Source of the DNA: Candidatus Woesearchaeota archaeon
GTDB taxonomy: Archaea; Nanobdellota; Nanobdellia; Pacearchaeales; GW2011-AR1
Direction of reading: 5' to 3'
DNA: 64,000 nucleotides
Assembly: GCA_964617015.1 (NCBI GenBank)
Contig: CAZTVG010000002.1
Span: 13,077-77,076 of the forward strand
Under the pieces are notes generated by a model, which searched no databases, was not told the DNA's origin, and saw only the letters and a list, made by a program, of their open reading frames with translations. Positions within the stretch are counted from its first letter, which is position 1; each line of letters begins with the position of its first letter. Below, one piece after another: positions 1-63,229 of the stretch. The position numbers and the translations under genes were made by a program.

Positions 1-2
1 AG

Positions 3-250
3 CTTTCAGAGAAAAACAAGGGTTCAGGAAAAGCAGTTTTCCTGGATTCTTCCCTTCAGGAAATAAAAAAAGTCTCTTCCAAAGGTCTCGCCAGTGCTTT
101 AAGAAATATAAGAGAAAAACCTTCTGTAATCATAATTGACGGAGTTGCTGCTGTTTCAGCAATAAAAGCTGCAGAAGAACATGGCGTGAAAGTCATTGTG
201 GCAAAAAATTTCACGACAACAGATACTAATCTGGAACTTTTAAGTTTTTG
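3..250 (+). CDS. C-terminal fragment of an archaeal DnaG-type (Toprim) primase-like protein, truncated by the window edge
   Basis: Frame 3 is open from the window edge to TGA at 248-250. It reads ...KPSVIIIDGVAAVSAIKAAEEHGVKVIVAKNFTTTDTNLELLSF. This resembles, from memory, the conserved C-terminal segment of archaeal DnaG (..FDGI..QRL.D.A.E.GVK.LV..). The listed antisense ORF 56-301 looks spurious. Confidence 0.4.
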
Positions 251-3914: not shown

Positions 3915-4544
3915 TTATTCAACAAAAGGAACAAATATGAATCCTGGAATTTTCTTTTTTATCTCAAAGACATTTCCCTTTCTCTTGAGAACTATAAGAG
4001 ATTGTTCAAATCTTGGACCTTTTGGAAGAACAAGTATGCCTCCTTCCTTTAGCTGGCCTAGAAGTGCCTCTGGCAGTTCGCGACAGGCAGCACTTACGAG
4101 AATCCTGTCAAAAGGTGCCTGCTCTGGAAGACCGTGAAATCCGCTTTTATTGTATATCTTAATATTATTGTAATTCTCAAGATTTTCCTTTGAGCTTTTA
4201 GCCAGTTCACTGAGTATCTCAACACCAAACACCTTTCCTTCATTGCCAACAATCTCTGAGATAAGGGCGAGAACATACCCACAGCCAGAACCAAGCTCAA
4301 GCACTTTCTGTCCTTTTTTTAAATCTAATTCAGAAAGCATTACTGCAATAGTGTATGGCTGGGAAATTGTCTGTCCAGAGCCAATTGGCAAAGGCGTATC
4401 TTCATAAGCATTGTCTTTTAATTCAGATGGAACAAAATCCTCGCGTTTAACGCTTGAAAAAGCATCCAGAATTTTCTTTGAAAAACCCATTTCCTTCAAA
4501 CTTCTCAGGAGTTGTTGTTTGTTCATTTTAAAACAATTCCTCAA
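3915..4544 (-). CDS. pcm: Protein-L-isoaspartate O-methyltransferase
   Basis: GQTISQPYTIAVMLSELDLKKGQKVLELGSGCGY is the canonical PIMT pre-motif plus SAM motif I. The 209-aa length is typical. Confidence 0.9.
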   Translation of the reverse strand: MRNCFKMNKQQLLRSLKEMGFSKKILDAFSSVKREDFVPSELKDNAYEDTPLPIGSGQTISQPYTIAVMLSELDLKKGQKVLELGSGCGYVLALISEIVGNEGKVFGVEILSELAKSSKENLENYNNIKIYNKSGFHGLPEQAPFDRILVSAACRELPEALLGQLKEGGILVLPKGPRFEQSLIVLKRKGNVFEIKKKIPGFIFVPFVE

Positions 4545-4761
4545 ATTCTTTTCTTGATAATTGAATATCTTCTTTAATTATCTTTAATAGTAAACCAGGT
4601 CCTATTTTGTCTCCAGGATGATAAGGGATAACAGTTGACCTGCCATTAGGATGTTTGAAGAACATATGGCTTCCTCTTTGCCTAATAAATTTAAAACCTA
4701 ATTTCTTAAGAATTTTTGATAATTGTATCGCATCAAGACGTGGCAGTTTTGCCATCTTCAA
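4528..4761 (-). CDS. hicA: HicA-family mRNA interferase toxin
   Basis: 77 aa. KILKKLGFKFIRQRGSHMFFKHPNGRSTVIPYH matches the HicA/YcfA signature (G..xxRxxGSHxxxxH). It lies directly downstream of a HicB-like gene, and its 3' end overlaps the pcm start by 17 nt. Confidence 0.85.
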   Translation of the reverse strand: MKMAKLPRLDAIQLSKILKKLGFKFIRQRGSHMFFKHPNGRSTVIPYHPGDKIGPGLLLKIIKEDIQLSRKEFEELF

Positions 4762-4797
4762 ACTCCATTTTTTAAGAGTTTGAACGCTTTCATTGTC

Positions 4798-5016
4798 TTA
4801 AACCTCTACTTTTTGTATACCAATAAATTCACTTCTTACTTCAATACTTGGTTTTTCGCATTCTAAGTAGAGAGCAATTGCTTCCTTTGTCCTTTCAATA
4901 AGTTCATCTATGCTTTTTGCTTGTGTGTGGCATCCTGGCAATCCGACTACCTCTGATACAAAATAACCTTCCCCATCCTTTTCGATTATTACATTAAAAT
5001 TAGTCATAATAATCAT
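4798..5016 (-). CDS. hicB: HicB-like antitoxin (UPF0150 fold)
   Basis: 72 aa. FNVIIEKDGEGYFVSEVVGLPGCHTQAKSIDELIERTKEAIALYLE is the typical HicB N-terminal domain. It is paired with hicA. Confidence 0.8.
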   Translation of the reverse strand: MIIMTNFNVIIEKDGEGYFVSEVVGLPGCHTQAKSIDELIERTKEAIALYLECEKPSIEVRSEFIGIQKVEV

Positions 5017-5189
5017 AACTTAAAAGGGTATATAAAATTTTCTGACGTCTCATAATTATTATTAAATTAATTATATTAAAAATTGAGATTTTTTGTTCAT
5101 GAATAAAAAAGAAGAGAATATTCATCTTAAACCCTTAAACTAATTATCCGTCATGCATACGACGTGAATTTTAATTCACGGAGTCATGG

Positions 5190-8063
5190 CTATACTCTAA
5201 GACTAATGATTTTAGATATACCGTCATGCATGCTTACCCCGTAGAGATTTATTGCTCTTGTGATGACTTCATCATTGTGCGTGATTATTATGTACTGGCC
5301 CTTCTGCATGTATTTGTTAAGAAGACCGGCAAGTCTTTCAGAATTTTTTTTGTCGAGTGCTGCGTCAACCTCATCAAGAATATAAAAATAATAAGGCCTG
5401 TATTCCTGAATTGCAAAAATCAAAGAAAGAGCCACAAGGGTTTGTTCCCCTCCTGACAGGGATTTTACATCAAAATATTTTCCATGGCCTGTTTTAACCA
5501 AAACACTAACTCCGCCATCAAAGGGATCTTTCCTGTTCTCCATTTCCAGAGAGACATGACCTTTTGTGCTTAACTGGGAAAAATTCCTGGAGAAAAATTC
5601 ATTTAATTGATTTAGTGTCTGAACAAAAACTTTTTTCTTTTTTATGTCTATTTCATGAATTATCTTTAAAACTCCCTCTTTTTCTCTGGAAATTATTTCT
5701 GCTTTTTCCCTTATTGCATTATACTCTTTCTTTATAGAATCATAAACTTCCAGTGACCTGAGATTCACAGAACCAAGTCTTGAAAGAATCTCCTTGGTTT
5801 TGATAAGTCTCTGAACCAATGAATCTTTGCTTGCCTTGATTACCTCTATATTTTCAAACTCAAGCATTTCTGTTTCCAGATTTTCCGCCTCTGCATCAAC
5901 TCTTGCTTTTTCAATCTTTAAATCATTCATTTCCTGCTCTACGGCATGAAGTGAGTGCTGTTTTGAGAGAATCCCTGATTCCTTTTCCCTTGATTTTCTC
6001 TGAAATCCTTCTCTTTCTGAAATGAGTTCCTGGAATCTTTTGCTTAATATTTCCTCCTGCTTCTTTTTCCTTGAGAGAATTTTTTCTTTTTCTCCCAGAT
6101 TGTCTTTAAGATCCCTAAAGTCTTCCTTTAAATCTTCCTCTTCTCTAAAAATTTGTTTTAGGGAAATTCTTGAACGCTCAAGCTCTCTTTCCTTGAATAT
6201 GACTTCTGATTTCACGTTTTCCCTTGTTCTGAGCGGAATTTCTTGGATTTCAATCCTTAGTATTTCATATTTTTGCTCTATGTGGGAGCTGGCTTCATAA
6301 CTTTTTTCAAGAGTTTTTCTTTTTTTAATTAATTCCAAGAGCTCTTCTCTGACTTTTTCTGATTTTTCATGAATTGTTTTAATCTGCAGTTTTTTCTCAT
6401 TTATATTTGAAATTCTGTTCAGGTCTGATTCGGTCTTTGAGATTTCATGCGTCATTCCATCAACATCCCGGATTATTATTTCCTTTTTCTGGTAAATTAA
6501 CTCCAGTTCCTTATCCGCGTTTTCTATTTCTTTCTTCAGGGATTCTGTTTTGGGAAGAATTTCTTTCTTTATCTCCTCCATATGCTCAGGAGTTATCCTG
6601 CTTTTGCATATGGGGCATATGTCAAGTTTGGAGATTTTCTCCAGAATTTTATTCTGGTTTTCTATTTCTGATTCATTAGCAGAAGTAATTTTTTCGAACT
6701 CAACTTCCTTTTTCAGCAAGCTGCTGAGAACAACTTTTTTTTCTGCAAGCCCGAGTTTAAGCTTGTCAAGTTTTTTTGAATCAGCCCTCGGGTCAAAAAG
6801 TTCTATCGAAAAATTTTCAGCCTGTTTTAACAGAAAATCAGATTCATCCACATAATTTTTATAAAGAGTGTTTTTGTCCTGAATTCTTTCCCTGATTGAC
6901 TTCAATTCAGATTTAATCATGTAAAATCTCTTTCTTTGATTTTCAAGTCTTTCAAGTTCTCTCTTTTTTTCCTCAATCTCTTTTGTTTTCTTTTCTGCTG
7001 TAGGGGATTCTTTCCTGAGTTCTTTCACGGAAATTTCTGTTTCTTTTATGAACAAATGAAGCTCATGCTTTTCCCTTGAAAGTTCGGAAAGTTTATTCAC
7101 CTGGTTTTCAAGCCTTACACCCATTCCCGCAAGTTCTGCCCTCAGATTCGCAATTTCATGGTTAAGCTTTTCCTGTTCAAGCCCTGCAGATTTCTGTATT
7201 TTTAGGTTGATTTCATTAATTTTCAACTCAAAGTTTTTTATTTCTGCTTCAATTCCTGTTATTAGCTTTTTCAGATTTTCTGTTTCTTTGTTCTTTTTTC
7301 CCATATCTGAAACTATTTTTTCAAGCTCTCTCTTTTTTCTGGAAAGGTCATGATAAATTATGCTTGCTCTTAATCTTTTTGTGTCTTTTTCAAGTTTTTT
7401 ATATTTCAGTGCCTGCTGCCTCTCTTTTTCAAGATTATTAAGGTAAGATGCTCTCTCTCTCAGAATCGAGTTGATTTCCATGAGTTTTTCATCTGTCTTT
7501 TCAAGCTCTCTTAGAGATTTCGCTTTTCTTGATTCATAAACAGAAATCCCGGAAACCTCTTCAATTACTTTTCTTCTTTCCTCTGGCTGCATTATGACAA
7601 AATTCTGGATTTCACCCTGGAGCACGATGTTAAACCCCTGGGGGTCTATTCCTGCCTGAGCCAACAAAGACAAAATTTCCTGTCTTGTTTTTGTCTCATT
7701 GTTAATTTTATATACGCTTTGCCCGTTTCTTCTTACTGTTCTCTTTATTACCACCTCATTTTTTTCTATGGAAAAAATTCTTTCTGAGTTATCAAACACG
7801 ACCTCAACAGAAGCTTCTTTTGCAGGAGATGCTGCTTTTGTCCCGAGAAAAATTAAATTTCTTGCTTTGGCAGCCCTCATAGACTTTATGCTAAGCCTTC
7901 CTAAAACAAAACACAATGCATCAGAAATATTTGATTTTCCAGAGCCATTAGGACCAAGAATAACATTTATCCCCCGCGTGAACAGAATTTCTGTTCTTCT
8001 AGGAAAACTCTTAAATCCATGAATAACTAATTTTTTTATATATGACATGGTCCCAACTTCCAT
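5190..8063 (-). CDS. SMC-family chromosome-organisation ATPase with SMC-type heads, no recognisable hinge and a central CxxC zinc-hook-like motif
   Basis: N-terminal head: GFKSF...ILGPNGSGKSNISDALCFVLG. C-terminal head: LSGGEQTLVALSLIFAIQEYRPYYFYILDEVDAALD. About 300-aa heptad-like Lys/Glu-rich arms flank LDICPICKSRITPEH at the midpoint (CPIC = nt 6606-6617). The protein is 957 aa, against about 1150-1200 aa for canonical SMC. The true start may be the ATG at 8048 (MSYIKK). Confidence 0.85.
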   Translation of the reverse strand: MEVGTMSYIKKLVIHGFKSFPRRTEILFTRGINVILGPNGSGKSNISDALCFVLGRLSIKSMRAAKARNLIFLGTKAASPAKEASVEVVFDNSERIFSIEKNEVVIKRTVRRNGQSVYKINNETKTRQEILSLLAQAGIDPQGFNIVLQGEIQNFVIMQPEERRKVIEEVSGISVYESRKAKSLRELEKTDEKLMEINSILRERASYLNNLEKERQQALKYKKLEKDTKRLRASIIYHDLSRKKRELEKIVSDMGKKNKETENLKKLITGIEAEIKNFELKINEINLKIQKSAGLEQEKLNHEIANLRAELAGMGVRLENQVNKLSELSREKHELHLFIKETEISVKELRKESPTAEKKTKEIEEKKRELERLENQRKRFYMIKSELKSIRERIQDKNTLYKNYVDESDFLLKQAENFSIELFDPRADSKKLDKLKLGLAEKKVVLSSLLKKEVEFEKITSANESEIENQNKILEKISKLDICPICKSRITPEHMEEIKKEILPKTESLKKEIENADKELELIYQKKEIIIRDVDGMTHEISKTESDLNRISNINEKKLQIKTIHEKSEKVREELLELIKKRKTLEKSYEASSHIEQKYEILRIEIQEIPLRTRENVKSEVIFKERELERSRISLKQIFREEEDLKEDFRDLKDNLGEKEKILSRKKKQEEILSKRFQELISEREGFQRKSREKESGILSKQHSLHAVEQEMNDLKIEKARVDAEAENLETEMLEFENIEVIKASKDSLVQRLIKTKEILSRLGSVNLRSLEVYDSIKKEYNAIREKAEIISREKEGVLKIIHEIDIKKKKVFVQTLNQLNEFFSRNFSQLSTKGHVSLEMENRKDPFDGGVSVLVKTGHGKYFDVKSLSGGEQTLVALSLIFAIQEYRPYYFYILDEVDAALDKKNSERLAGLLNKYMQKGQYIIITHNDEVITRAINLYGVSMHDGISKIISLRV

Positions 8064-23296: not shown

Positions 23297-23530
23297 TCAG
23301 ATTTTTTTCCTCAATTTATCATATTCTTCCTTACTTAAATTAATTTGTTTTAATATGTGTCTTAATAGTCCTTTTCCTAAATCTTCGTTTCCATGGACGG
23401 GAACAACCGTTCTTCTTCCGTCTTTATGTTTAAACCTCATGTGGCTTCCCTTGCCATAAATTTTTTCAAATCCTAATTTCTCAAGAATTTTGCAGAGCTT
23501 TTTTCCTGAAATAGGAACAAGCTTAACCAT
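23297..23530 (-). CDS. hicA: HicA-family toxin (second copy)
   Basis: KILEKLGFEKIYGKGSHMRFKHKDGRRTVVPVHG. It is paired with an upstream HicB gene across a 1-nt gap. Confidence 0.85.
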   Translation of the reverse strand: MVKLVPISGKKLCKILEKLGFEKIYGKGSHMRFKHKDGRRTVVPVHGNEDLGKGLLRHILKQINLSKEEYDKLRKKI

Positions 23531-23531
23531 T

Positions 23532-23789
23532 TTAAATTACAGTTGGTTTTTTAACGCTAACTTTTTGGATTCCTATAAAAGTCATTGGTTTAATATCTTC
23601 TTTGTCCTCTTCAAGACAAACCTCAATAGCTTCCTTAATTCTTTCTAAAACTTCCTGTTGGTTTTTTCCCTGAGTATAACATCCTTCAAGCTCTGGAACG
23701 TTCGCTACATAAATTCCATCTTCGTCCTGTTCAATAACCACAGTAAAATCAAGAACATGTTTCTCCATAAAAATCATAGGCCTTTTCAC
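23532..23789 (-). CDS. hicB: HicB-like antitoxin (second copy)
   Basis: FTVVIEQDEDGIYVANVPELEGCYTQGKNQQEVLERIKEAIEVCLEE. Confidence 0.8.
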   Translation of the reverse strand: MKRPMIFMEKHVLDFTVVIEQDEDGIYVANVPELEGCYTQGKNQQEVLERIKEAIEVCLEEDKEDIKPMTFIGIQKVSVKKPTVI

Positions 23790-23934: not shown

Positions 23935-24405
23935 TTGACCATGTTATTTTTTATGATAGTAATATATTTTGCAGGATCTATCTCAGGGGGACGGGATAAT
24001 GTCGAGCTTTATGGACAGATAATTGAGCATCTGAAAAAATACGGAAAAGTTCTTACAGAGCATATTGGAGACAAAAAACTTTCAGCATTAGGCGAAACAA
24101 ATCTGAGTGATTCTGAAATTTATGAGAGAGATACTGACTGGCTATACATGGCAAACGTTGTTGTTGCAGAAGTTACAACACCCAGTCTTGGCGTTGGTTT
24201 TGAAATAGGAAGAGCTCATGAAAGGAATAAATGGTTGGCAAAAACCTTCGGAGCTTATGGGAAAAAAATTCTCTGTTTGTATAGACCTTCTGATGGAAAA
24301 AGACTTTCTGCAATGATAGCAGGCTGTGAAGACTTAACTTTAAGAGAATACGCTAAGATAGAAGAAGCCAGAAAACACATAGATGATTTTTTTATTAAAA
24401 GATAA
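23935..24405 (+). CDS. 2'-deoxynucleoside 5'-phosphate N-hydrolase (DNPH1/Rcl-like, nucleoside 2-deoxyribosyltransferase superfamily)
   Basis: IYFAGSISGGRDNVELYGQIIEHLKKYGKVLTEHIG...IYERDTDWLYMANVVVAEVTTPSLGVGFEIGRA is colinear with Rcl/DNPH1 (YFCGSIRGGR...VLTEHV...DL.WL..ADVVVAEVT.PSLGVGYELGRA). The true start is probably an internal ATG (23941 or 23956). Confidence 0.75.
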   Translation: MTMLFFMIVIYFAGSISGGRDNVELYGQIIEHLKKYGKVLTEHIGDKKLSALGETNLSDSEIYERDTDWLYMANVVVAEVTTPSLGVGFEIGRAHERNKWLAKTFGAYGKKILCLYRPSDGKRLSAMIAGCEDLTLREYAKIEEARKHIDDFFIKR

Positions 24406-28356: not shown

Positions 28357-29100
28357 ATGATTCTTAGGGGGTTTATGACACTCAAGATTTTTGTAAGTTC
28401 TCATCATAAAGATTATAGTCTCGCTAATGAAATAAAATCTTTCTTAGAAGTTTTTGGGTTGGAAGTATTTGTAGCACATAAAGATATAGAAGCCTCTAAG
28501 GATTGGATAGAAGTCATCCATCAGAAAATTAAGGATTGTGATATTTTTATGCCTCTTTTAACAAAAAATTTTTATAAATCTCAATGGACAGATCAAGAAT
28601 CTGGAATTGCATATACCCACCATAGAAGAATCCTTTCTATTAAAATAGACGAAACTCCAAGAGGTTTCATAGGTAAATACCAAGCGCTTTATTTTGATAA
28701 TTCAACAGAAGAAAATCAAAGGAAAAGAGAGTTAATGAAGATTTTTGATAGGATAAAAACAGATTTTTCGCAAGAAATCAAGAACTCTTTAATTAATTCG
28801 TTGGAGAGACCTTATACCTCCACCTATAAAATAGCTTCTAGTAAAATTAGATTGCTCGATAGAATGCAACCTTTTAGTGCAGCAGAAATTAATCTTATAA
28901 TGAATAAAAGTTTAGAAAATGATCAGATTTATGATAATGGACTTCTGAGATCTATCCTAAAAAATTGGCTTACAAAATATGATAAAGAGATCTTACCAGA
29001 AATAAAAGAAAAGATTGCGATTACGATAAGGGTTCCTAGTGAAGCAGAAATTGAACAACTTATTGATAAAGAAGCAGTAAAGGATCCAACAATTCTATAA
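28357..29100 (+). CDS. TIR-domain protein with a helical C-terminal extension
   Basis: KIFVSSHHKDYSLANEIKSFLEVFGLEVFVAHKDIEASKDWIEVIHQKIKDCDIFMPLLTKNFYKSQWTDQESGIAY fits the bacterial TIR_2 pattern (FISY..D...A..L...L...G..V..D..I..G..W...I...I......LLS..Y..S.W...E). The putative catalytic Glu is E81 (nt 28597-28599). The start may be M7 (28375). Confidence 0.7.
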   Translation: MILRGFMTLKIFVSSHHKDYSLANEIKSFLEVFGLEVFVAHKDIEASKDWIEVIHQKIKDCDIFMPLLTKNFYKSQWTDQESGIAYTHHRRILSIKIDETPRGFIGKYQALYFDNSTEENQRKRELMKIFDRIKTDFSQEIKNSLINSLERPYTSTYKIASSKIRLLDRMQPFSAAEINLIMNKSLENDQIYDNGLLRSILKNWLTKYDKEILPEIKEKIAITIRVPSEAEIEQLIDKEAVKDPTIL

Positions 29101-29205
29101 GAAAGAATGTAAGGGACAAAATAACACCAGCAGAAAAGTGTGGAATTGGTGTAGATAGAAATAGATGGAATACTCTTTTAATGGAAAGTTTAAATAATAA
29201 AGATA

Positions 29206-29958
29206 ATGCATAAAAATATGACCTACATAATTACTCTTGCTGGAAAAGATTCAATTTATATGGCTTCAGATTCTCGTCTTGAATATTTTAATGAAAAAGA
29301 AATTAACGGAGAAAAATATAAAGAAATAGTTGCATTTGCAGATTGTATCAAAAAAACATTTTTTATTGAAAATTTAAAAATAGGAATACAATTTAGTGGA
29401 ATTGGATTTTTACCAGATAAAGAAGAAAAATACCCCCTTTCATATTTTATTAAAAAATTAGAAGATAAAAATAGTAGTTCAGTGGATGAAAGTTTTGAAC
29501 TGGTGTTTAATTTTTTTAAGGATTTAAGTATTGAAGGAGATACTGGACAATATGTTAAAGGAATAATGTCTGCAATAGATAAAGGAGATAAAAAAGTTTG
29601 TCTATTTAATACATTTGATAATGATTTTAGAGTAGAGAAGTTAGAACCAGCTCAATATGTTGAAAACGAAAAGATTGGGGGGAGTTTTAGTTTGAGTAAA
29701 GATAAAATAATCCAAGAAATTAAAAAAAGAATCGCACAAAAATCAAGAGAAAAATGGTGGACTATTGGGGGAAAAATTACACTATTAGAAATAAACCAAG
29801 AATCACACTCTTTTTTATTAGAATCTGACGATTTTTCACAAAGCCAAAAAGAATTAATTAGATGTTTTAGGGGGGATTTAAATAAAATTAATGGAAGAAT
29901 ACTAACATATTCAAAATTAGTAAAGTATGAACTCCCGACATTTGACAAGCGAGGATGA
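29206..29958 (+). CDS. Divergent proteasome-beta/HslV-like Ntn-hydrolase-fold protein (hypothetical)
   Basis: From the second ATG (29218) the protein begins M-TYIITLAGKDSIYMASDSR. KKTFFIENLKIGIQFSGIG follows, paralleling TTTVGI..KD.V..A.D.R ... KK.F.I......I.AG in proteasome beta, including the psmB in this window (GTTILGIVCRDGVVMAADRQ). The C-terminal ~90 aa are unassigned. Confidence 0.45.
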   Translation: MHKNMTYIITLAGKDSIYMASDSRLEYFNEKEINGEKYKEIVAFADCIKKTFFIENLKIGIQFSGIGFLPDKEEKYPLSYFIKKLEDKNSSSVDESFELVFNFFKDLSIEGDTGQYVKGIMSAIDKGDKKVCLFNTFDNDFRVEKLEPAQYVENEKIGGSFSLSKDKIIQEIKKRIAQKSREKWWTIGGKITLLEINQESHSFLLESDDFSQSQKELIRCFRGDLNKINGRILTYSKLVKYELPTFDKRG

Positions 29959-30004
29959 TTTAATTAAAACTCCCTAAGATTTGACAATCCCACCCCTCAA
30001 AAAC

Positions 30005-30012
30005 TTTATAAA
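30005..30012 (+). promoter_or_regulatory. Candidate TATA box for the downstream structured RNA
   Basis: TTTATAAA lies about 22-29 nt upstream of the proposed RNA 5' end near 30034. Confidence 0.4.
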
Positions 30013-30033
30013 TGGTTATGAACCTAGTCTACC

Positions 30034-30293
30034 GTAGACTAGGTTGGCGGGTTAGCCCACCGCTGCTTGCAAATGGGCTTTATGGCAGACTGCAAGGAAG
30101 GGCGTGATTGGCATCGTTGAAAAGTCCTTGTTTGGACGTTGACGCTTTGTCCGCTTCGATCTTGCAGATGCAAAACGGGTCAGACCTTGATCGGAGCAGC
30201 CCTAAACATTTGTTAAGATGCTTGGCGGGTCGCAGAGCCGAGGAAGAATAAGGGTAGCTTTTTGGCAATCCTTAAGCAAACTTCCGGGTCTAC
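30034..30293 (+). ncRNA. Structured ncRNA, most likely signal recognition particle (7S/SRP) RNA
   Basis: A G+C-rich, non-coding ~260-nt island in an AT-rich genome, with a TATA box upstream and an oligo-T run (30295-30300) downstream. The 5' GTAGAC (30034-30039) is complementary to the 3' GTCTAC (30288-30293). The internal GGGTCAGACCTTGATCGGAGCAGCCC resembles the SRP helix-8 core (GGUCAGGUCCGGAAGGAAGCAGCC in 4.5S RNA). The ends are approximate. Confidence 0.6.
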
Positions 30294-30342
30294 ATTTTTT
30301 CTATAGAAAGATTTATATAATAATTATACATAAAGGTTATAC

Positions 30343-30570
30343 ATGGCAGTAGAGGTTAAAACTAAGAAATGGGGAAATTCCATAGGAATCATAATACCTA
30401 GTGAGACTGTTGAAAGACTTGATATAAAACCAGAAGAAAGAATAGTTGTTGAAATAAGCAAAGAATCTAATGTCCTTAAAGAAATGTTTGGGACAATGAA
30501 ATCTGAGAAGACGGCCAAACAGATTGTTGATGAAGCGCATAAAGAATTGGAAAGCAAATGGATGAAATAA
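30343..30570 (+). CDS. vapB: AbrB/SpoVT-family antitoxin (VapB-like)
   Basis: VKTKKWGNSIGIIIPSETVERLDIKPEERIVVE is the swapped-hairpin AbrB motif. It overlaps the downstream PIN gene by 13 nt. Confidence 0.8.
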   Translation: MAVEVKTKKWGNSIGIIIPSETVERLDIKPEERIVVEISKESNVLKEMFGTMKSEKTAKQIVDEAHKELESKWMK

Positions 30571-30932
30571 AGAGGTGTCTTGATACTTACGTATTGGTTG
30601 AAATAAAACTAGGAAATCCTAAATTTTCAGATTATTTTAAATCCAGGTTTGTTATCGTAGATTTAATATTAGCAGAATTTTATAGTGTTCTTCTTCGGGA
30701 GGAAAGTGAAGAAGTGGCCGAATATTGGTTTAAAAAACTTGAAGGTTATTCAGTTTCAGTGAGCAAAAAAATTCTTATTGAGGCAGTAAAATTTAGATAT
30801 AAACACAAGAGATCAAGAATTTCATTTTTTGATGCTGTTGGATATATCTTTTCGCTAAAAAATGGTTATAAATTTGTCACAGGAGATAAAGAATTTAAAA
30901 AACTAGACAATGTGGAGTTTAGGAAGAAATGA
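30558..30932 (+). CDS. vapC: PIN-domain toxin (VapC-like)
   Basis: Acidic residues fall in PIN positions: CLDTYVLVE, FFDAVGY, FVTGDKEF. 124 aa. Confidence 0.7.
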   Translation: MDEIKRCLDTYVLVEIKLGNPKFSDYFKSRFVIVDLILAEFYSVLLREESEEVAEYWFKKLEGYSVSVSKKILIEAVKFRYKHKRSRISFFDAVGYIFSLKNGYKFVTGDKEFKKLDNVEFRKK

Positions 30933-43458: not shown

Positions 43459-44493
43459 TCATTTTTCTTCTGAATAAGAATCTTTAGAGAAATTTCTCCA
43501 TTCAATTCCAAGATCTAAAAAATCAATTTCTGCAAATCTGTTTAAATTAAGTTTTCCTTTCCCAGTAAGATACTTAAAGATTTCCATAACCTGAATATTC
43601 GCAACAGCCCCTGCAATTGGACCCAGATTTCCTGTTTGTTGAATATCTTTTATAACTTTTAAATTACTTAGAGAATCATTTCTTCTTTGATGCTCTATAA
43701 AATCATCAAAAGAAGCAGTTTTACCAGGGATTATTATTGGTCCAATCATTCCAAGATGCATATTATATCCTCCGGCAATACAGTAAGGAATATTATACTT
43801 TTGAGCATATTCATCAATTATTCTTGTCGTTTCTTGCACTGACGGTGAATCAGCACAATTCACTAAAAAATCCGCATCAATGACAATCTCTTCTAGATTT
43901 TCCTCTTCAGAAACCATTTTTGTAAATGTTCTTATATTTGAATCAGGTATCTTTTCCTTGATTACATCAACTTTCAATCTCCCAATATCTCTTTCATTAA
44001 AAAACAATTGTCTGTTAAGATTACTCTTTTGAACTACATCTGGATCAGTTATCCTTATCTCTCCAATTCCTAACTGATACAAACCATTAACAATCCATGT
44101 TCCTATTCCCCCTATGCCAAATACAGAAATAGTTGAATCTTCAAGCTTTTTTTGTAAACTAATTGTCTCTTCATGGGAATTTGTGAGTTCACCAATAAAT
44201 AACATTTGTCTTGAGTATCTTTCCTCAGTTTCATAGTCATCTTCTCTTATAATTCCTTCATATTTTAATGATTTTAAACAAGTCATTACCTTTCCACTTT
44301 CATAATCACTGGAAAGTTTATCGACAAGTAAATCCACATCTTGGCCAATTTTCAATTCACTAATAATTCTTTTTACTAATCCATCTACTTCAAACGTTTT
44401 TACTCTTCTTGTCCCTGTAAATATAACTTTGTAGATATCGCTTGATTCTTCTAATATGTAAATAGATTCTCTTAATTTTATTTTTTTACTCAT
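43459..44493 (-). CDS. ThiF/MoeB/E1-like adenylating enzyme with an N-terminal RRE-like (PqqD-like) domain
   Basis: RYSRQMLF, VFGIGGIGTWIV (GxGxxG) and ITDPDVVQKSNLNRQ form the E1-like core. The first ~90 aa (IYILEESSDIYKVIFTGTRRVKTFEVDGLVKRIISELKIGQDVDLLVDKL) look like a RiPP recognition element. There is a 4-nt ATGA overlap with the upstream gene. Confidence 0.75.
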   Translation of the reverse strand: MSKKIKLRESIYILEESSDIYKVIFTGTRRVKTFEVDGLVKRIISELKIGQDVDLLVDKLSSDYESGKVMTCLKSLKYEGIIREDDYETEERYSRQMLFIGELTNSHEETISLQKKLEDSTISVFGIGGIGTWIVNGLYQLGIGEIRITDPDVVQKSNLNRQLFFNERDIGRLKVDVIKEKIPDSNIRTFTKMVSEEENLEEIVIDADFLVNCADSPSVQETTRIIDEYAQKYNIPYCIAGGYNMHLGMIGPIIIPGKTASFDDFIEHQRRNDSLSNLKVIKDIQQTGNLGPIAGAVANIQVMEIFKYLTGKGKLNLNRFAEIDFLDLGIEWRNFSKDSYSEEK

Positions 44494-54003: not shown

Positions 54004-54162
54004 ATTTATTGATTATTTTAGATTAATAAAAAAATAATTTTATGACCAGCCTTAGAACGCCTTCCAATAATTAAATATCTATTTTTTATTTTATAAATAT
54101 TTACAAGCTATTAGTTAAAATTTATTAATAGAAACATTTATAACGTATACTTGTGTATACAG

Positions 54163-54375
54163 ATGTATATGGAAACTACAGTAAGGTTGTCTAATAATAT
54201 AAAGAAACAGCTTGACAGAATGAAATTGTTTGAAAGAGAGAGTTACAATGACGTTATTGGGGCTTTAATAGAAGACCATCTGGAGGTAAATGAGAGAACA
54301 AAGAAAGAATTAAGAATTGCTAGAAAGGAAAAGAGTTTTTCCCATAAGGAAGTTGAGAGAAGGCTGAAATTATAA
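54163..54375 (+). CDS. Ribbon-helix-helix antitoxin (RelB/CopG-like)
   Basis: METTVRLSNNIKKQLDRMKLFERESYNDVIGALIEDH is an RHH pattern. The stop overlaps the start of a RelE-like gene (ATAATG at 54372-54377). Confidence 0.65.
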   Translation: MYMETTVRLSNNIKKQLDRMKLFERESYNDVIGALIEDHLEVNERTKKELRIARKEKSFSHKEVERRLKL

Positions 54376-54623
54376 TGTTTACAATTGAATGGAAAGAGGG
54401 AGCCATTAGACAGCTAGAGAAATTACAACCTCTGCTTTCCAAAAGAATTCTGAAAAAAGTTCTGGAGCTAAAGGAAAATCCTTTTTCAAAAGATATCAAA
54501 AGATTAAAGGGAGAAAAGGCCTTCAGATTAAGAGTTGGGGATTATAGGATACTTTTTGATATAGATTTAAACAAAAAATCCATAACAATCTTAAGGATGG
54601 GACACAGGAAAAACATTTATTAA
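54375..54623 (+). CDS. relE: RelE/ParE-family toxin
   Basis: IRQLEKL...ILKKVLELKENPFSKDIKRLKGEKAFRLRVGDYRILFDIDLNKKSITILRMGHRKNIY is the classic RelE/ParE C-terminal pattern (RLRVGDYR..Y......I.IL...HR...Y). Confidence 0.85.
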   Translation: MFTIEWKEGAIRQLEKLQPLLSKRILKKVLELKENPFSKDIKRLKGEKAFRLRVGDYRILFDIDLNKKSITILRMGHRKNIY

Positions 54624-54771: not shown

Positions 54772-55182
54772 GTGAAGTGCTCAAGAATTATCTCTCCGGG
54801 AAGCAGGGAGCTGTTAGAAGGCTGTGGAGAATGCGGCGGTCATTTTTTCTTTTATATCAGGGATGAACAGATAAACAACATTAAAGAAAAACTAATTGAA
54901 ATTCCAACAGAAGAAAAGAAACAGATTGAAAAAGATATAAGGGAAATGGTGGGAATAACTGACGAGCAGGCACCGGTCATTCTTGATATAGAATCAATAA
55001 GAATTACAGGGGAGGGAAAATTCGAGCTGGACATTGTAAAGCTTTTCAGAAAAGACAGGCCTCTGATTTACAAATTAGAAGAAGGTAAATATATCATTGA
55101 CCTTGCATCCACGCTAAGCGCAAATATAAAAGACATAAAAGGAATAAAAAATCCTGATGACAAGAAAAATAAGGAACGTTAA
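54772..55182 (+). CDS. Zn-ribbon-containing archaeal protein (DUF2072-like)
   Basis: KCSRIISPGSRELLEGCGECGGHFFFY is a zinc-ribbon-like N-terminus with only one complete CxxC pair. The start (GTG) is uncertain. Confidence 0.45.
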   Translation: MKCSRIISPGSRELLEGCGECGGHFFFYIRDEQINNIKEKLIEIPTEEKKQIEKDIREMVGITDEQAPVILDIESIRITGEGKFELDIVKLFRKDRPLIYKLEEGKYIIDLASTLSANIKDIKGIKNPDDKKNKER

Positions 55183-56494
55183 TTCTGTCTTAAAAGAGGT
55201 TTTACAGAGAGTAGAGCCATCTGAAGAAGAGCTAAAAATAATTGAAGATTCGCTCCATGAATTTCTGGACCAGCTTAACAAAAGACTCAAAGCTTCAAAA
55301 ATAAATGCAGAGATTTTTCTTGGGGGAAGCTTTGCAAAAGGAACAATAATAAAAAAGGACCTGTATGATATTGATATTTTTGTAAGGTTTGACAAGGAGC
55401 ATAAGGAAAATGAACTTTCAAGGCTGACAGGAAGAATTCTCAGGGGGATAAAAAATGTCTCTTTAATTCATGGCTCAAGAGATTACTTCAGAGTAAATGC
55501 TTCCAAAAATTTGGTTTTTGAGATCATCCCTGTAAAAAAAATAAAAAATCCAAAAGAAGCAGAAAACATAACAGACCTTTCTTATGCTCATGTTAATTAC
55601 ATAAAAAGAAAACTAAAAAACAAAAAGCTTCCTGATGAAATAAGACTTGCAAAGGCTTTTTGCCACGCAAACAACTGTTATGGAGCTGAATCATACATAA
55701 GAGGATTTTCAGGATATGCCCTTGAGCTTTTGGTTTATCATTACAACAGTTTTCTCAAATTTATCCATGCCATGTCAAAAATTAAAGAGAGACAAAAGGC
55801 TAAGCCTTTAGCTACTTCGTCTACAAGCAGCCAGAGTAAAGAAATAATAGATATAGAAAAACATTATAAAAACAAAAATCAGGTTTTAATGGACATTAAC
55901 GCCTCAAAGCTCTATTCTCCGGTAATTCTCATAGATCCCACATACAAGCAAAGGAATGTCTTGGCTGCGCTTTCTGAGGAAACCTTCAGGAAATTCAGAA
56001 AAGCCTGTCAGGATTTCTTGAAAAATCCTCATCCTGAAATGTTTGAATCAAAAAAAATAAATCTTGAAAAAATAAGGAAAAATGCAAAAAAAAGGGGATA
56101 TGGGTATGTCCTGCTGAAAGCAAAAACCAGTAAGCAGGAAGGGGATATTGCGGGAAGCAAGTTACTGAAATTCTACAAGCATCTTGTACATGAAACTGAA
56201 AGGTTTTTTGAAATCAAGGGCAGGGGTTTTGAATATCAGGGCAAAAAATCTGCAAGGTATCTTTTTGTTGTTAAAAAGAAAAAGGAAATTTTAATTTCAG
56301 GACCTGATATTAATGATAAAAAGAATGTCATAAGATTTAAAAAAAAGCATAAAAAAGTATTTGTTAAGAATAAAAAATTTTATTCAAAAGAGAAAACCAA
56401 GGTAACATTGACGGCATTTATTCAGAATTGGAAGAAAAAACACAGGAAAAGAATCAAAGATATGTATATTACCAGGCTGGAATTTATTTTTTAA
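55157..56494 (+). CDS. cca: CCA-adding enzyme (archaeal class I tRNA nucleotidyltransferase)
   Basis: VLKEVLQRVEPSEEE...AEIFLGGSFAKGTIIKKDLYDIDIFVRF matches the archaeal GS.A+GT......D.D.FV motif. The 445-aa length is typical. The function is consistent with tRNA genes that lack an encoded CCA. Confidence 0.8.
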   Translation: MTRKIRNVNSVLKEVLQRVEPSEEELKIIEDSLHEFLDQLNKRLKASKINAEIFLGGSFAKGTIIKKDLYDIDIFVRFDKEHKENELSRLTGRILRGIKNVSLIHGSRDYFRVNASKNLVFEIIPVKKIKNPKEAENITDLSYAHVNYIKRKLKNKKLPDEIRLAKAFCHANNCYGAESYIRGFSGYALELLVYHYNSFLKFIHAMSKIKERQKAKPLATSSTSSQSKEIIDIEKHYKNKNQVLMDINASKLYSPVILIDPTYKQRNVLAALSEETFRKFRKACQDFLKNPHPEMFESKKINLEKIRKNAKKRGYGYVLLKAKTSKQEGDIAGSKLLKFYKHLVHETERFFEIKGRGFEYQGKKSARYLFVVKKKKEILISGPDINDKKNVIRFKKKHKKVFVKNKKFYSKEKTKVTLTAFIQNWKKKHRKRIKDMYITRLEFIF

Positions 56495-62542: not shown

Positions 62543-63229
62543 TTACTTCTTTCTCTCTCTGTATTCATGAACAATTTCATGCTCAACCGCTTTCTTGATT
62601 CCGTCTTTTGTTATAGTAAAAACATCAATTCCATATCCAGAACCAATGTCTCTCTGTGTTGAAGCCTTTACAGCTTCAATAGCAAGCTCCACACCTTCCT
62701 TGACAGACATATTTTCCTTATACTGTCTTTCCAGAAGTCCAAGAACATAAGGCATTCCAGAACCAAAATTTGCGTCATAATCTTCTACTTTAACAACACT
62801 GCCTGCAGGTTCTATTGTGTATAATTCTGTAGAGCCATCTTCATCAAATCCTCCAATCAGAGTTCCGACAATATTTGGAATCATAGAAGACTGTCTTATC
62901 TGAGAGTATGTTACTGTGGAAAAAAGATTTGCAGCTTGTTTTACAGTTGGTCTTGTCCTTGACCTGAGTTCCTTTAATTTAAGTTCTGCAGCAATTATTT
63001 TTACAAGTCTTTGTGAATCTGCTACTCCTCCTGTCCACGAACCAACAAGATAATCTGTTATTTGTCTTACTTTTTGCTTACTTTTATTCACAACCAAGTT
63101 TCCTGCAGTTGTTTGCCTGTCAGCAGCCATTACAACTCCGTCTCTGCAGACTATTCCCAAGATAGTTGTTCCTGTTTTTAAAATTGAATTTTTCAGTTCT
63201 GCATCCATTTTATTTAGTAGTATCCCCAC
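62543..63229 (-). CDS. psmB: Proteasome subunit beta
   Basis: Propeptide, then GTTILGIVCRDGVVMAADRQTTAGNLVVNKSKQKV... and GSGMPYVLG. Confidence 0.9.
   Translation of the reverse strand: MGILLNKMDAELKNSILKTGTTILGIVCRDGVVMAADRQTTAGNLVVNKSKQKVRQITDYLVGSWTGGVADSQRLVKIIAAELKLKELRSRTRPTVKQAANLFSTVTYSQIRQSSMIPNIVGTLIGGFDEDGSTELYTIEPAGSVVKVEDYDANFGSGMPYVLGLLERQYKENMSVKEGVELAIEAVKASTQRDIGSGYGIDVFTITKDGIKKAVEHEIVHEYRERKK

Follow-up and report, generated by a model that had tools for sequence, protein, structure and literature searches.

Proteasome-like proteins and TIR-domain proteins both have described relatives against which the locus analysed here can be set. Fuchs, Alva & Lupas 2021 (PMC8665760) reported 22 new proteasome homologs, among them PMI-1..6, WPH, PHI and PPH, found no informative genomic context for any of the new families, and encountered propeptides only in proteasome beta and HslV; connectase (MJ0548; PDB 6ZVZ), a further proteasome-like protein, is monomeric (PMC7980362). 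On the TIR side, type IV Thoeris combines a TIR protein with a caspase-like protease (bioRxiv 10.1101/2024.10.24.620036), SpbK of B. subtilis (PMC12847820; PDB 9phb) is a stand-alone TIR of the NADase type, and a recent survey of 29 TIR-effector architectures leaves N-terminal nucleophile (Ntn) or proteasome-like effectors unmentioned. We analysed a stretch of 64,000 nucleotides (the window) from Candidatus Woesearchaeota archaeon (GCA_964617015.1, contig CAZTVG010000002.1, positions 13,077 to 77,076), AT-rich with a GC content of about 33%, in which a gene for a TIR-domain protein (gene 1) is followed on the same strand by a gene for a proteasome-beta-like Ntn hydrolase (gene 2). The first-pass annotation of this DNA, made from the sequence by eye, had read the two as a candidate defence module in which the TIR protein controls the peptidase. 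We favour another reading, with a probability of roughly 0.7: these are two unrelated accessory genes of a DPANN (Pacearchaeota-like) genome, a solitary TIR gene and a transposon-borne Ntn gene, probably juxtaposed by mobile-element activity and not co-evolved. The features on which this reading turns are the following, in window coordinates.

28357..29100, plus strand: gene 1, TIR gene; longest open reading frame 247 aa; family-consensus start at ATG 28375, giving 241 aa beginning MTLKIF
29088..29198, plus strand: DDE transposase pseudogene fragment (IS240/IS66-type, SWIM zinc finger), the last ~36 codons (29088-29195) and the stop
29189-29196: TATA-like box of gene 2 (tttaaata), about 26 nt upstream of ATG 29218, read from the sequence, with a putative promoter role
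29206..29958, plus strand: gene 2, proteasome-beta-like Ntn hydrolase; longest open reading frame 250 aa; conserved Met-Thr start at 29218, giving 246 aa
29930..29991, plus strand: right end of the transposable unit, with two direct copies of AACTCCC-N5/6-TTGACA at 29930-29947 (inside the 3' end of gene 2) and 29968-29986, and the terminus TTGACAATCCC at 29981-29991
30005-30012 (approximate): TATA-like box (tttataaa) of the signal recognition particle (SRP) RNA gene
30032..30295, plus strand: archaeal SRP RNA gene, reduced form (Rfam Archaea_SRP)

The junction between the two genes carries most of the argument. The open reading frame of gene 2 begins 105 nt past the TIR stop codon, as had been annotated, and about 117 nt separate that stop from the conserved ATG; the distance stands, the notion of a neutral spacer does not, for the gap is filled by the transposase pseudogene fragment, which overlaps the TIR stop codon itself (29098-29100). 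By tblastn this remnant is 75% identical over 36 aa (E 1e-12) to the intact 396-aa transposase of locus L034, in which Pfam recognises DDE_Tnp_IS240 (8.7e-11), IS66 (3.8e-9) and SWIM (5.5e-5) domains and which also has a zinc ribbon. The arrangement recurs: at four other distinct loci the DNA ahead of the gene-2 homologue shows 72-77% identity to window positions 29091-29217, and in L001, L041/L042 and L038 the gene-2 homologue is immediately preceded by a remnant of 29-49 transposase codons. At L034 (3809-5690) the stop of the intact transposase falls 2 nt ahead of the ATG of the gene-2 homologue, a spacing which suggests that, in the ancestral arrangement, the two genes were co-transcribed or translationally coupled. 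Gene 2 would accordingly be cargo that travels directly behind an IS240/IS66-type DDE transposase, within a unit bounded by inverted repeats.

The far side of gene 2 marks the other edge of this unit. The two-copy AACTCCC-N5/6-TTGACA motif is found 3' of gene-2 homologues in L001, L034/L035 and L041/L042 as well, and similarity between loci ends there. In L001 the unit spans 4118-5380 (1,263 bp), has identical 12-nt inverted termini (GGGATTGTCAAA...) with two sub-terminal motif copies at each end, and is flanked by a 9-bp direct repeat, TTGAAATGG, that constitutes a target-site duplication. Most copies of the unit are internally deleted with the cargo gene retained. The window copy is truncated on the left, with its breakpoint at the TIR stop codon and no matching copy of the left end anywhere in the window; its right end adjoins the SRP RNA promoter, and the SRP RNA gene is the host flank on that side of the insertion. 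The C-terminus of the gene-2 protein (...ELPTFDKRG) differs from that of its relatives and reads through the first repeat copy. The course of events that we consider probable is that the Ntn gene arrived on a transposon, inserted by a solitary TIR gene, and was left with a unit that subsequently lost its left part.

As an observation in its own right, L001:4109-5389 is a complete mini-transposon, composed of a 49-codon transposase remnant and an intact proteasome-like gene, in which the cargo has been kept and the transposase has decayed. We also considered the conserved element downstream of gene 2 as a structured RNA or terminator and rejected this (z -0.68). Among known mobile elements, those of the IS6/IS240 and IS66 types with passenger genes come closest: like the unit described here they have a DDE transposase and an internal gene that does not serve transposition, and like its L001 copy they have terminal inverted repeats and an 8-9-bp target-site duplication, whereas the present unit differs in its proteasome-like cargo, the SWIM and zinc-ribbon N-terminal domains of its transposase, the two sub-terminal repeats per end, and its internal deletions.

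Comparative evidence points the same way. Genomes, metagenomes and assemblies together yielded about 34 loci with gene-2 homologues (about 25 distinct), of which the nearest archaeal ones have 53-70% identity. A TIR-family hidden Markov model search of these loci at a permissive setting (hmmsearch --max, E<=10) found no TIR near any gene-2 homologue, and a Pfam census of 45 immediate neighbours returned neither a TIR domain nor an AAA+ partner; no neighbour family recurs across lineages. In the reverse direction, no gene-2 homologue adjoins the TIR gene at any of the three closest TIR loci (78%, 62% and 46% identity). The co-occurrence that the first-pass annotation had named as a check on its module was absent from all the loci examined, and a conserved two-gene TIR and Ntn defence system is not supported.

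Several points weigh against this assessment. With both genes on one strand and a gap of just about 117 nt, read-through transcription is possible; a functional coupling that arose recently in this lineage would be invisible to comparison; and few close relatives were sampled, about 10 archaeal loci, several of them on contigs shorter than 1.2 kb. L034, the locus with the intact transposase, has no recognisable left inverted repeat (a repeat search there did no better than shuffled sequence), so the full structure of the element is seen in L001 only. Finally, the gene-2 superfamily profile does not conserve the Asp166 and Ser169 found in canonical proteasome beta, so that the catalytic competence of gene 2 is uncertain. 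Taken at face value, the locus is a worked example of how adjacency in a small archaeal genome can come from a transposon scar and not from an operon.

Gene 2 is, by its predicted structure, a divergent proteasome-beta/HslV-like Ntn fold with a Thr1/Asp/Lys set, much as had been proposed. Its second ATG, at 29218, opens the reading M-T-Y-I-I-T, with which nearly all homologues begin; the ATG ahead of it is due to a substitution specific to this lineage, relatives having ACT or CTC at that position. Every complete close homologue starts with M-T, and the two exceptions are cut at the N-terminus, one of them (P0010) with MTYIIT encoded ahead of the start that was called. Once the initiator Met had been removed, Thr1 would be exposed without any processing of a propeptide. 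Residues are numbered below with Thr as 1 (with Met as 1, the key residues are D18, K46 and G61), and their codons are as follows.

29221-29223, plus strand: Thr1
29269-29271, plus strand: Asp17
29275-29277, plus strand: Arg19
29353-29355, plus strand: Lys33-equivalent (Lys45)
29398-29400, plus strand: Gly47-equivalent (Gly60)

The AlphaFold2 (AF2) model is confident (mean predicted local distance difference test score, pLDDT, 93.3; predicted template-modelling score, pTM, 0.90) and has the four-layer alpha-beta-beta-alpha architecture of Ntn hydrolases. All of the top 50 Foldseek matches in the PDB (50/50) are 20S proteasome beta subunits (E ~1e-6, probability 1.0, template-modelling (TM) scores 0.45-0.65), and among viral proteins a phage 'proteasome beta' matches best (TM 0.61/0.67). 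Thr1, Asp17, Arg19, Lys45 and Gly60 are invariant, or conserved at 90% or more, among homologues; Asp17, Lys45 and Gly60 are both invariant in the close family and at least 90% conserved in the superfamily. The link to the proteasome had to be drawn from structure and a wider profile because the direct sequence routes failed: the protein alone matched nothing in Pfam, NCBIfam, PADLOC or the PDB sequences (phmmer), a profile of the close family found no proteasome among PDB sequences, and hhalign of that profile against the window's own canonical proteasome beta, psmB, gave a probability of only 1.2%. A superfamily profile of 48 members, on the other hand, matches PDB proteasome beta over its full length (E 1.4e-6), with ASDSR corresponding to Asp17/Arg19, K-T-F to Lys33, C-G-N to Gly47, and GGPI to the SGG loop, and matches the window psmB with 82.5% probability (hhalign). 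PF00227 is touched by 18 of the 48 members (best E 2e-7) and not reached by the window protein.

In comparison with 20S proteasome beta and HslV (PF00227), gene 2 shares the Ntn fold, the N-terminal Thr, Asp17, Arg19, the Lys33- and Gly47-equivalents, and a GG loop before strand S10 that aligns with the SGG loop. It differs in lacking a propeptide and the Asp166/Ser169 pair, in a 12-residue insertion after Asp17 and before the Lys33-equivalent, where the AF2 model has a long beta-hairpin, in an additional hairpin ahead of H1, and in a C-terminal extension of about 40 aa from about residue 205 that is modelled as a short helix and a hairpin. The missing propeptide and the C-terminal extension had both been recognised at the outset; a nucleotide-binding pocket in that extension had been named as something to look for, and no known signal-binding domain, such as SLOG or Macro, was detected on gene 2 in Pfam, NCBIfam or PADLOC. 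The catalytic triad would consist of Thr1, Asp17 and the Lys33-equivalent, the Gly47-equivalent would supply the oxyanion hole, and the hairpin insertion together with the C-terminal extension would make a specific peptidase, amidase or transpeptidase likelier than a subunit of a 20S-type barrel.

The family to which gene 2 belongs is almost entirely metagenome-only, very sparsely sampled, patchy and cross-domain. We found about 26 close homologues, all unnamed or hypothetical, in Pacearchaeota and in metagenome-assembled genomes of Spirochaetes, KSB1, Bacteroidales, Cytophagales and Sphingobacteriaceae, and an exhaustive profile search returned 62 representatives at E<=1e-3 among 1.84 billion. 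One apparent match, P0043 (907 aa, repetitive and rich in His, Thr and Cys; E 1.6e-9 by way of 12 short stretches), is almost certainly a low-complexity artefact and was set aside. The families of PMC8665760 resemble this one in being divergent and sparse, with a conserved triad, insertions at the described sites, phage-borne relatives, and no conserved context that points to function; new in comparison are the transposon cargo, the recurrent defence neighbours, and a branch whose N-termini resemble signal peptides and carry Gly|Thr/Ser junctions. No representative accession of that study matches the gene-2 family, of which only three identical Spirochaetes entries, deposited in 2016, would have been present in the nr release searched for it. 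Compared with the 22 published families by description and accession, the gene-2 family appears to be a new proteasome-like subfamily, a mobile and solitary accessory gene; it is confidently modelled and has a conserved catalytic set with no proteasome-beta propeptide.

Distant members of the superfamily start with M-T or M-S, and those that are extended at the N-terminus mostly have G|T or G|S at the equivalent position, junctions that resemble the autoprocessing site of proteasome beta. Separately, P0067-P0073, P0078, P0087 and L003:92-931 were seen to have hydrophobic, signal-peptide-like N-termini, some of them lipoprotein-like, that are mostly followed by Gly|Thr or Gly|Ser and then the core. 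Members of this branch may be exported, autoprocessed homologues of the proteasome. The close family has no matches in IMG/VR. The distant Met-Ser branch (MSFIITVY..GIVMASDSR ... KTVGGPIDIL) occurs at 28 IMG/VR loci (L043-L070) and is common in prophages, often near their ends; among the ten full-length loci that we inspected, the neighbours are tail, lysis, integrase, repressor, PemK and AbiGii genes. Other neighbours of gene-2 homologues have defence functions.

L022:207-2053: type II restriction endonuclease, 15 nt upstream of the gene-2 homologue (6e-134)
L020:5001-6952: Shedu SduA beside the gene-2 homologue (5.6e-65)
L007/L029: type I/IIG restriction-modification system
L034: GmrSD+HNH plus methylase
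L006: WYL plus PDC-M30/M41 candidates
L071:648-5762: type I HsdR plus Lit-like Peptidase_U49

The defence partner differs at every one of these independent loci. Together with the transposon carriage in archaea, the prophage settings of the distant branch and the patchy distribution across domains, this leads to the alternative that survives best: the Ntn gene could be a single-gene determinant of conflict (defence, counter-defence or addiction) that moves among transposons, prophage accessory regions and defence islands, with the TIR gene as one neighbour of many. Against it stand homologues in housekeeping contexts, such as that beside leuS in L002 and that beside S17e and Alba genes in L037, the signal-peptide-like N-termini, which are probably those of exported proteins and would be odd for an intracellular immune effector, and the absence of the close family from IMG/VR. 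We consider such a role possible, though short of likely. A more specific form of the idea, which we put forward tentatively and hold somewhat less probable still, is that an undescribed branch of the proteasome superfamily serves as a mobile, lone Thr1 hydrolase that cleaves a specific host or invader protein and has been taken up by DPANN transposons and bacterial defence islands, with relatives in prophages; that gene 2 has been newly wired to the neighbouring TIR in this lineage is far less likely. The function of gene 2 may be conflict-related, and if the family does act in conflicts between hosts and parasites, the proteasome fold would be linked to prokaryotic immunity or to the biology of mobile elements. 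Such links are suggestive but unproven. For our preferred reading, in which the two genes are unrelated, the residual interest of the locus lies in the Ntn family itself, where transposon cargo, varied defence neighbours, and prophage-borne and apparently exported relatives are the first clues of context for orphan homologues of the proteasome.

It might also be asked whether gene 2 is a hydrolase at all or, instead, a connectase-like, sequence-specific ligase or an inert structural relative of proteasome subunits. Connectase is likewise proteasome-like with an insertion between Asp17 and Lys33, and the extra residues of gene 2 coincide with the connectase S3/S4 insertion region (PMC8665760); 5 of the 48 superfamily members weakly match the connectase N-terminal Pfam model, connectase appears among the PDB profile matches, and Asp166 and Ser169 lack conservation. 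These matches are weak, however (best 0.006), the insertion is a beta-hairpin and not the two-helix lid of connectase, H1 and H2 are present in gene 2, and the context is not that of a methanogen. Strict conservation of Thr/Ser1, Asp17, Arg19 and the Lys33- and Gly47-equivalents argues for catalysis. We judge a connectase-like or inert protein improbable.

Gene 1 encodes a TIR protein that has a glutamate of the catalytic type and a predicted fold closest to that of NAD-cleaving TIRs. Copies in databases begin at the internal ATG 28375. The protein matches Pfam TIR_2 (E 1.2e-15, 58.5 bits against a cut-off of 28) and the ThsB-type TIR models of PADLOC, and scores far under the cut-off of the Thoeris-III NCBIfam model. 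The WTDQE motif that had been picked out by eye is present, with E81 (in the 247-aa numbering) encoded at 28597-28599; only seven homologues were found, and all of these (7/7) retain the W, Q and E within a conserved SQWTDQE surrounding, which bears out the conservation of the glutamate that had been named as a check. In the AF2 model (pLDDT 83) a TIR core of about 125 aa is followed by eight helices (residues ~113-236, all-helical), in keeping with the helical tail described before, and an ENDQ(I/V)Y motif in this C-terminal domain is conserved among homologues. The best Foldseek matches are the SARM1 TIR, TIR-STING, the SPARTA TIR-APAZ and SpbK, over about 140 residues and within the TIR domain only; the helical tail had no structural match in Foldseek. 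The tail could be a sensor or an oligomerisation module.

The TIR gene, like gene 2, appears to keep varied company. Its DNA is 85% identical to that of the closest homologue over 28372-29015 only, a stretch that opens at the ATG and breaks off about 85 nt short of the stop codon; the flanking DNA is unrelated. The neighbours of the two other close homologues are a convergent helicase downstream in one case and, likewise downstream, a gene read from its translation as ribosomal protein uL3 in the other. At L026:4109-6380 the closest homologue (78%) is flanked by a serine resolvase and by a protein of 221 aa that bears a weak Hjc/PD-(D/E)xK-like nuclease signature. Such flanks suggest mobility of the TIR cassette itself, which may also have further partners. 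A resemblance between the C-terminus of the TIR homologue P0089 and a transposase tail (E 0.04-0.8) was dismissed, as this is the native tail of the TIR subclade of P0089. We picture gene 1 as a solitary cassette, most likely a lone NAD-cleaving TIR comparable to the single-gene abortive-infection protein SpbK. Both are stand-alone TIRs of the NADase type, SpbK is among the structural matches, and gene 1 is solitary with neighbours that vary; they differ in that no sequence relationship is detectable beyond the TIR, in the helical domain of gene 1, which is without a structural match, and in the archaeal host.

With both proteins described, the module of the first-pass annotation can be weighed as a lineage-specific system in which the TIR protein senses infection and activates the threonine peptidase through a nucleotide signal or by contact. 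The genes are adjacent on one strand, the TIR has a catalytic-type glutamate and resembles signal-producing and NADase TIRs, and gene-2 homologues often lie among defence genes. Type IV Thoeris offers the precedent of a catalytic-Glu TIR adjoining a protease-fold gene, and gene 1 matches ThsB models; unlike Thoeris, the pairing here is unconserved, the partner has an Ntn and not a caspase fold with no signal-binding domain detected, and the window has no ThsA, Macro or SLOG effector. No co-occurrence was found over the gene-2 and TIR loci searched, a transposase pseudogene stands between the genes, gene 2 sits in a separately mobile unit, and no Ntn or proteasome-like effector appears among the 29 surveyed architectures. 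A TATA-like box also precedes the conserved ATG of gene 1 by about 26 nt, as it does in gene 2, and from this we infer separate leaderless transcripts; a scan of the locus for bacterial-type promoters and terminators was uninformative, the host being an archaeon. A new pairing of TIR and threonine peptidase would, if true, be a new class of effector for TIR signalling, and the comparative evidence does not support it; we regard such a module as very improbable. That one or both reading frames are decaying pseudogenes or chance products of an AT-rich genome, as the transposase pseudogene between them and the divergent C-terminus of gene 2 might hint, has next to no probability, given that both are full-length against their homologues, keep all conserved residues and give confident models.

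The accessory surroundings are as had been annotated, with a surface protein upstream and SRP RNA and a vapBC-like pair downstream. The remaining features of the window are these.

Upstream of gene 1: Ig-like surface protein
23935-24402, plus strand: protein of the nucleoside 2-deoxyribosyltransferase family (Pfam 1.1e-12), some 4 kb upstream of gene 1
30343..30932, plus strand: MazE/AbrB-type antitoxin and PIN-domain toxin pair, vapBC-like (Pfam MazE_antitoxin 2.2e-5, PIN 3.1e-8)
62546-63229, minus strand: canonical psmB (proteasome beta), the window's own copy; its best matches are in Pacearchaeota and Nanoarchaeota, which places the source among DPANN archaea
5193-8063, minus strand: SMC/Rad50-like ATPase, PADLOC look-alike
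43462-44493, minus strand: ThiF-like E1, PADLOC look-alike
55157-56491, plus strand: putative CCA-adding-type nucleotidyltransferase, PADLOC look-alike
4531-5016, minus strand: small toxin-antitoxin-like pair
23300-23789, minus strand: small toxin-antitoxin-like pair
54151-54620, plus strand: small toxin-antitoxin-like pair

Gene 1 is the sole genuine defence-type PADLOC match in the window, and assignment of the PADLOC matches to genes left no effector of the ThsA, Macro or SLOG type. The matches to mad3 (7e-49), LmuB, AriA, E1-E2 and cyclase were rejected as defence genes, being housekeeping look-alikes; in isolation, the mad3/LmuB/AriA, E1-E2 and cyclase matches could pass for defence systems.

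The SRP RNA gene matches its Rfam model over the full length (E 1.4e-15) at 69.6 bits, against a gathering score of 96.5. It represents a reduced or divergent DPANN form that standard Rfam annotation would overlook and that is detectable by an E-value threshold only. Synteny between SRP RNA and gene 2 was considered and rejected, as SRP RNA does not lie beside gene-2 homologues at other loci. Of the three small pairs elsewhere in the window, two are HicA/HicB-like, with one HicA confirmed by Pfam, and one is putatively RelE/ParE-like.

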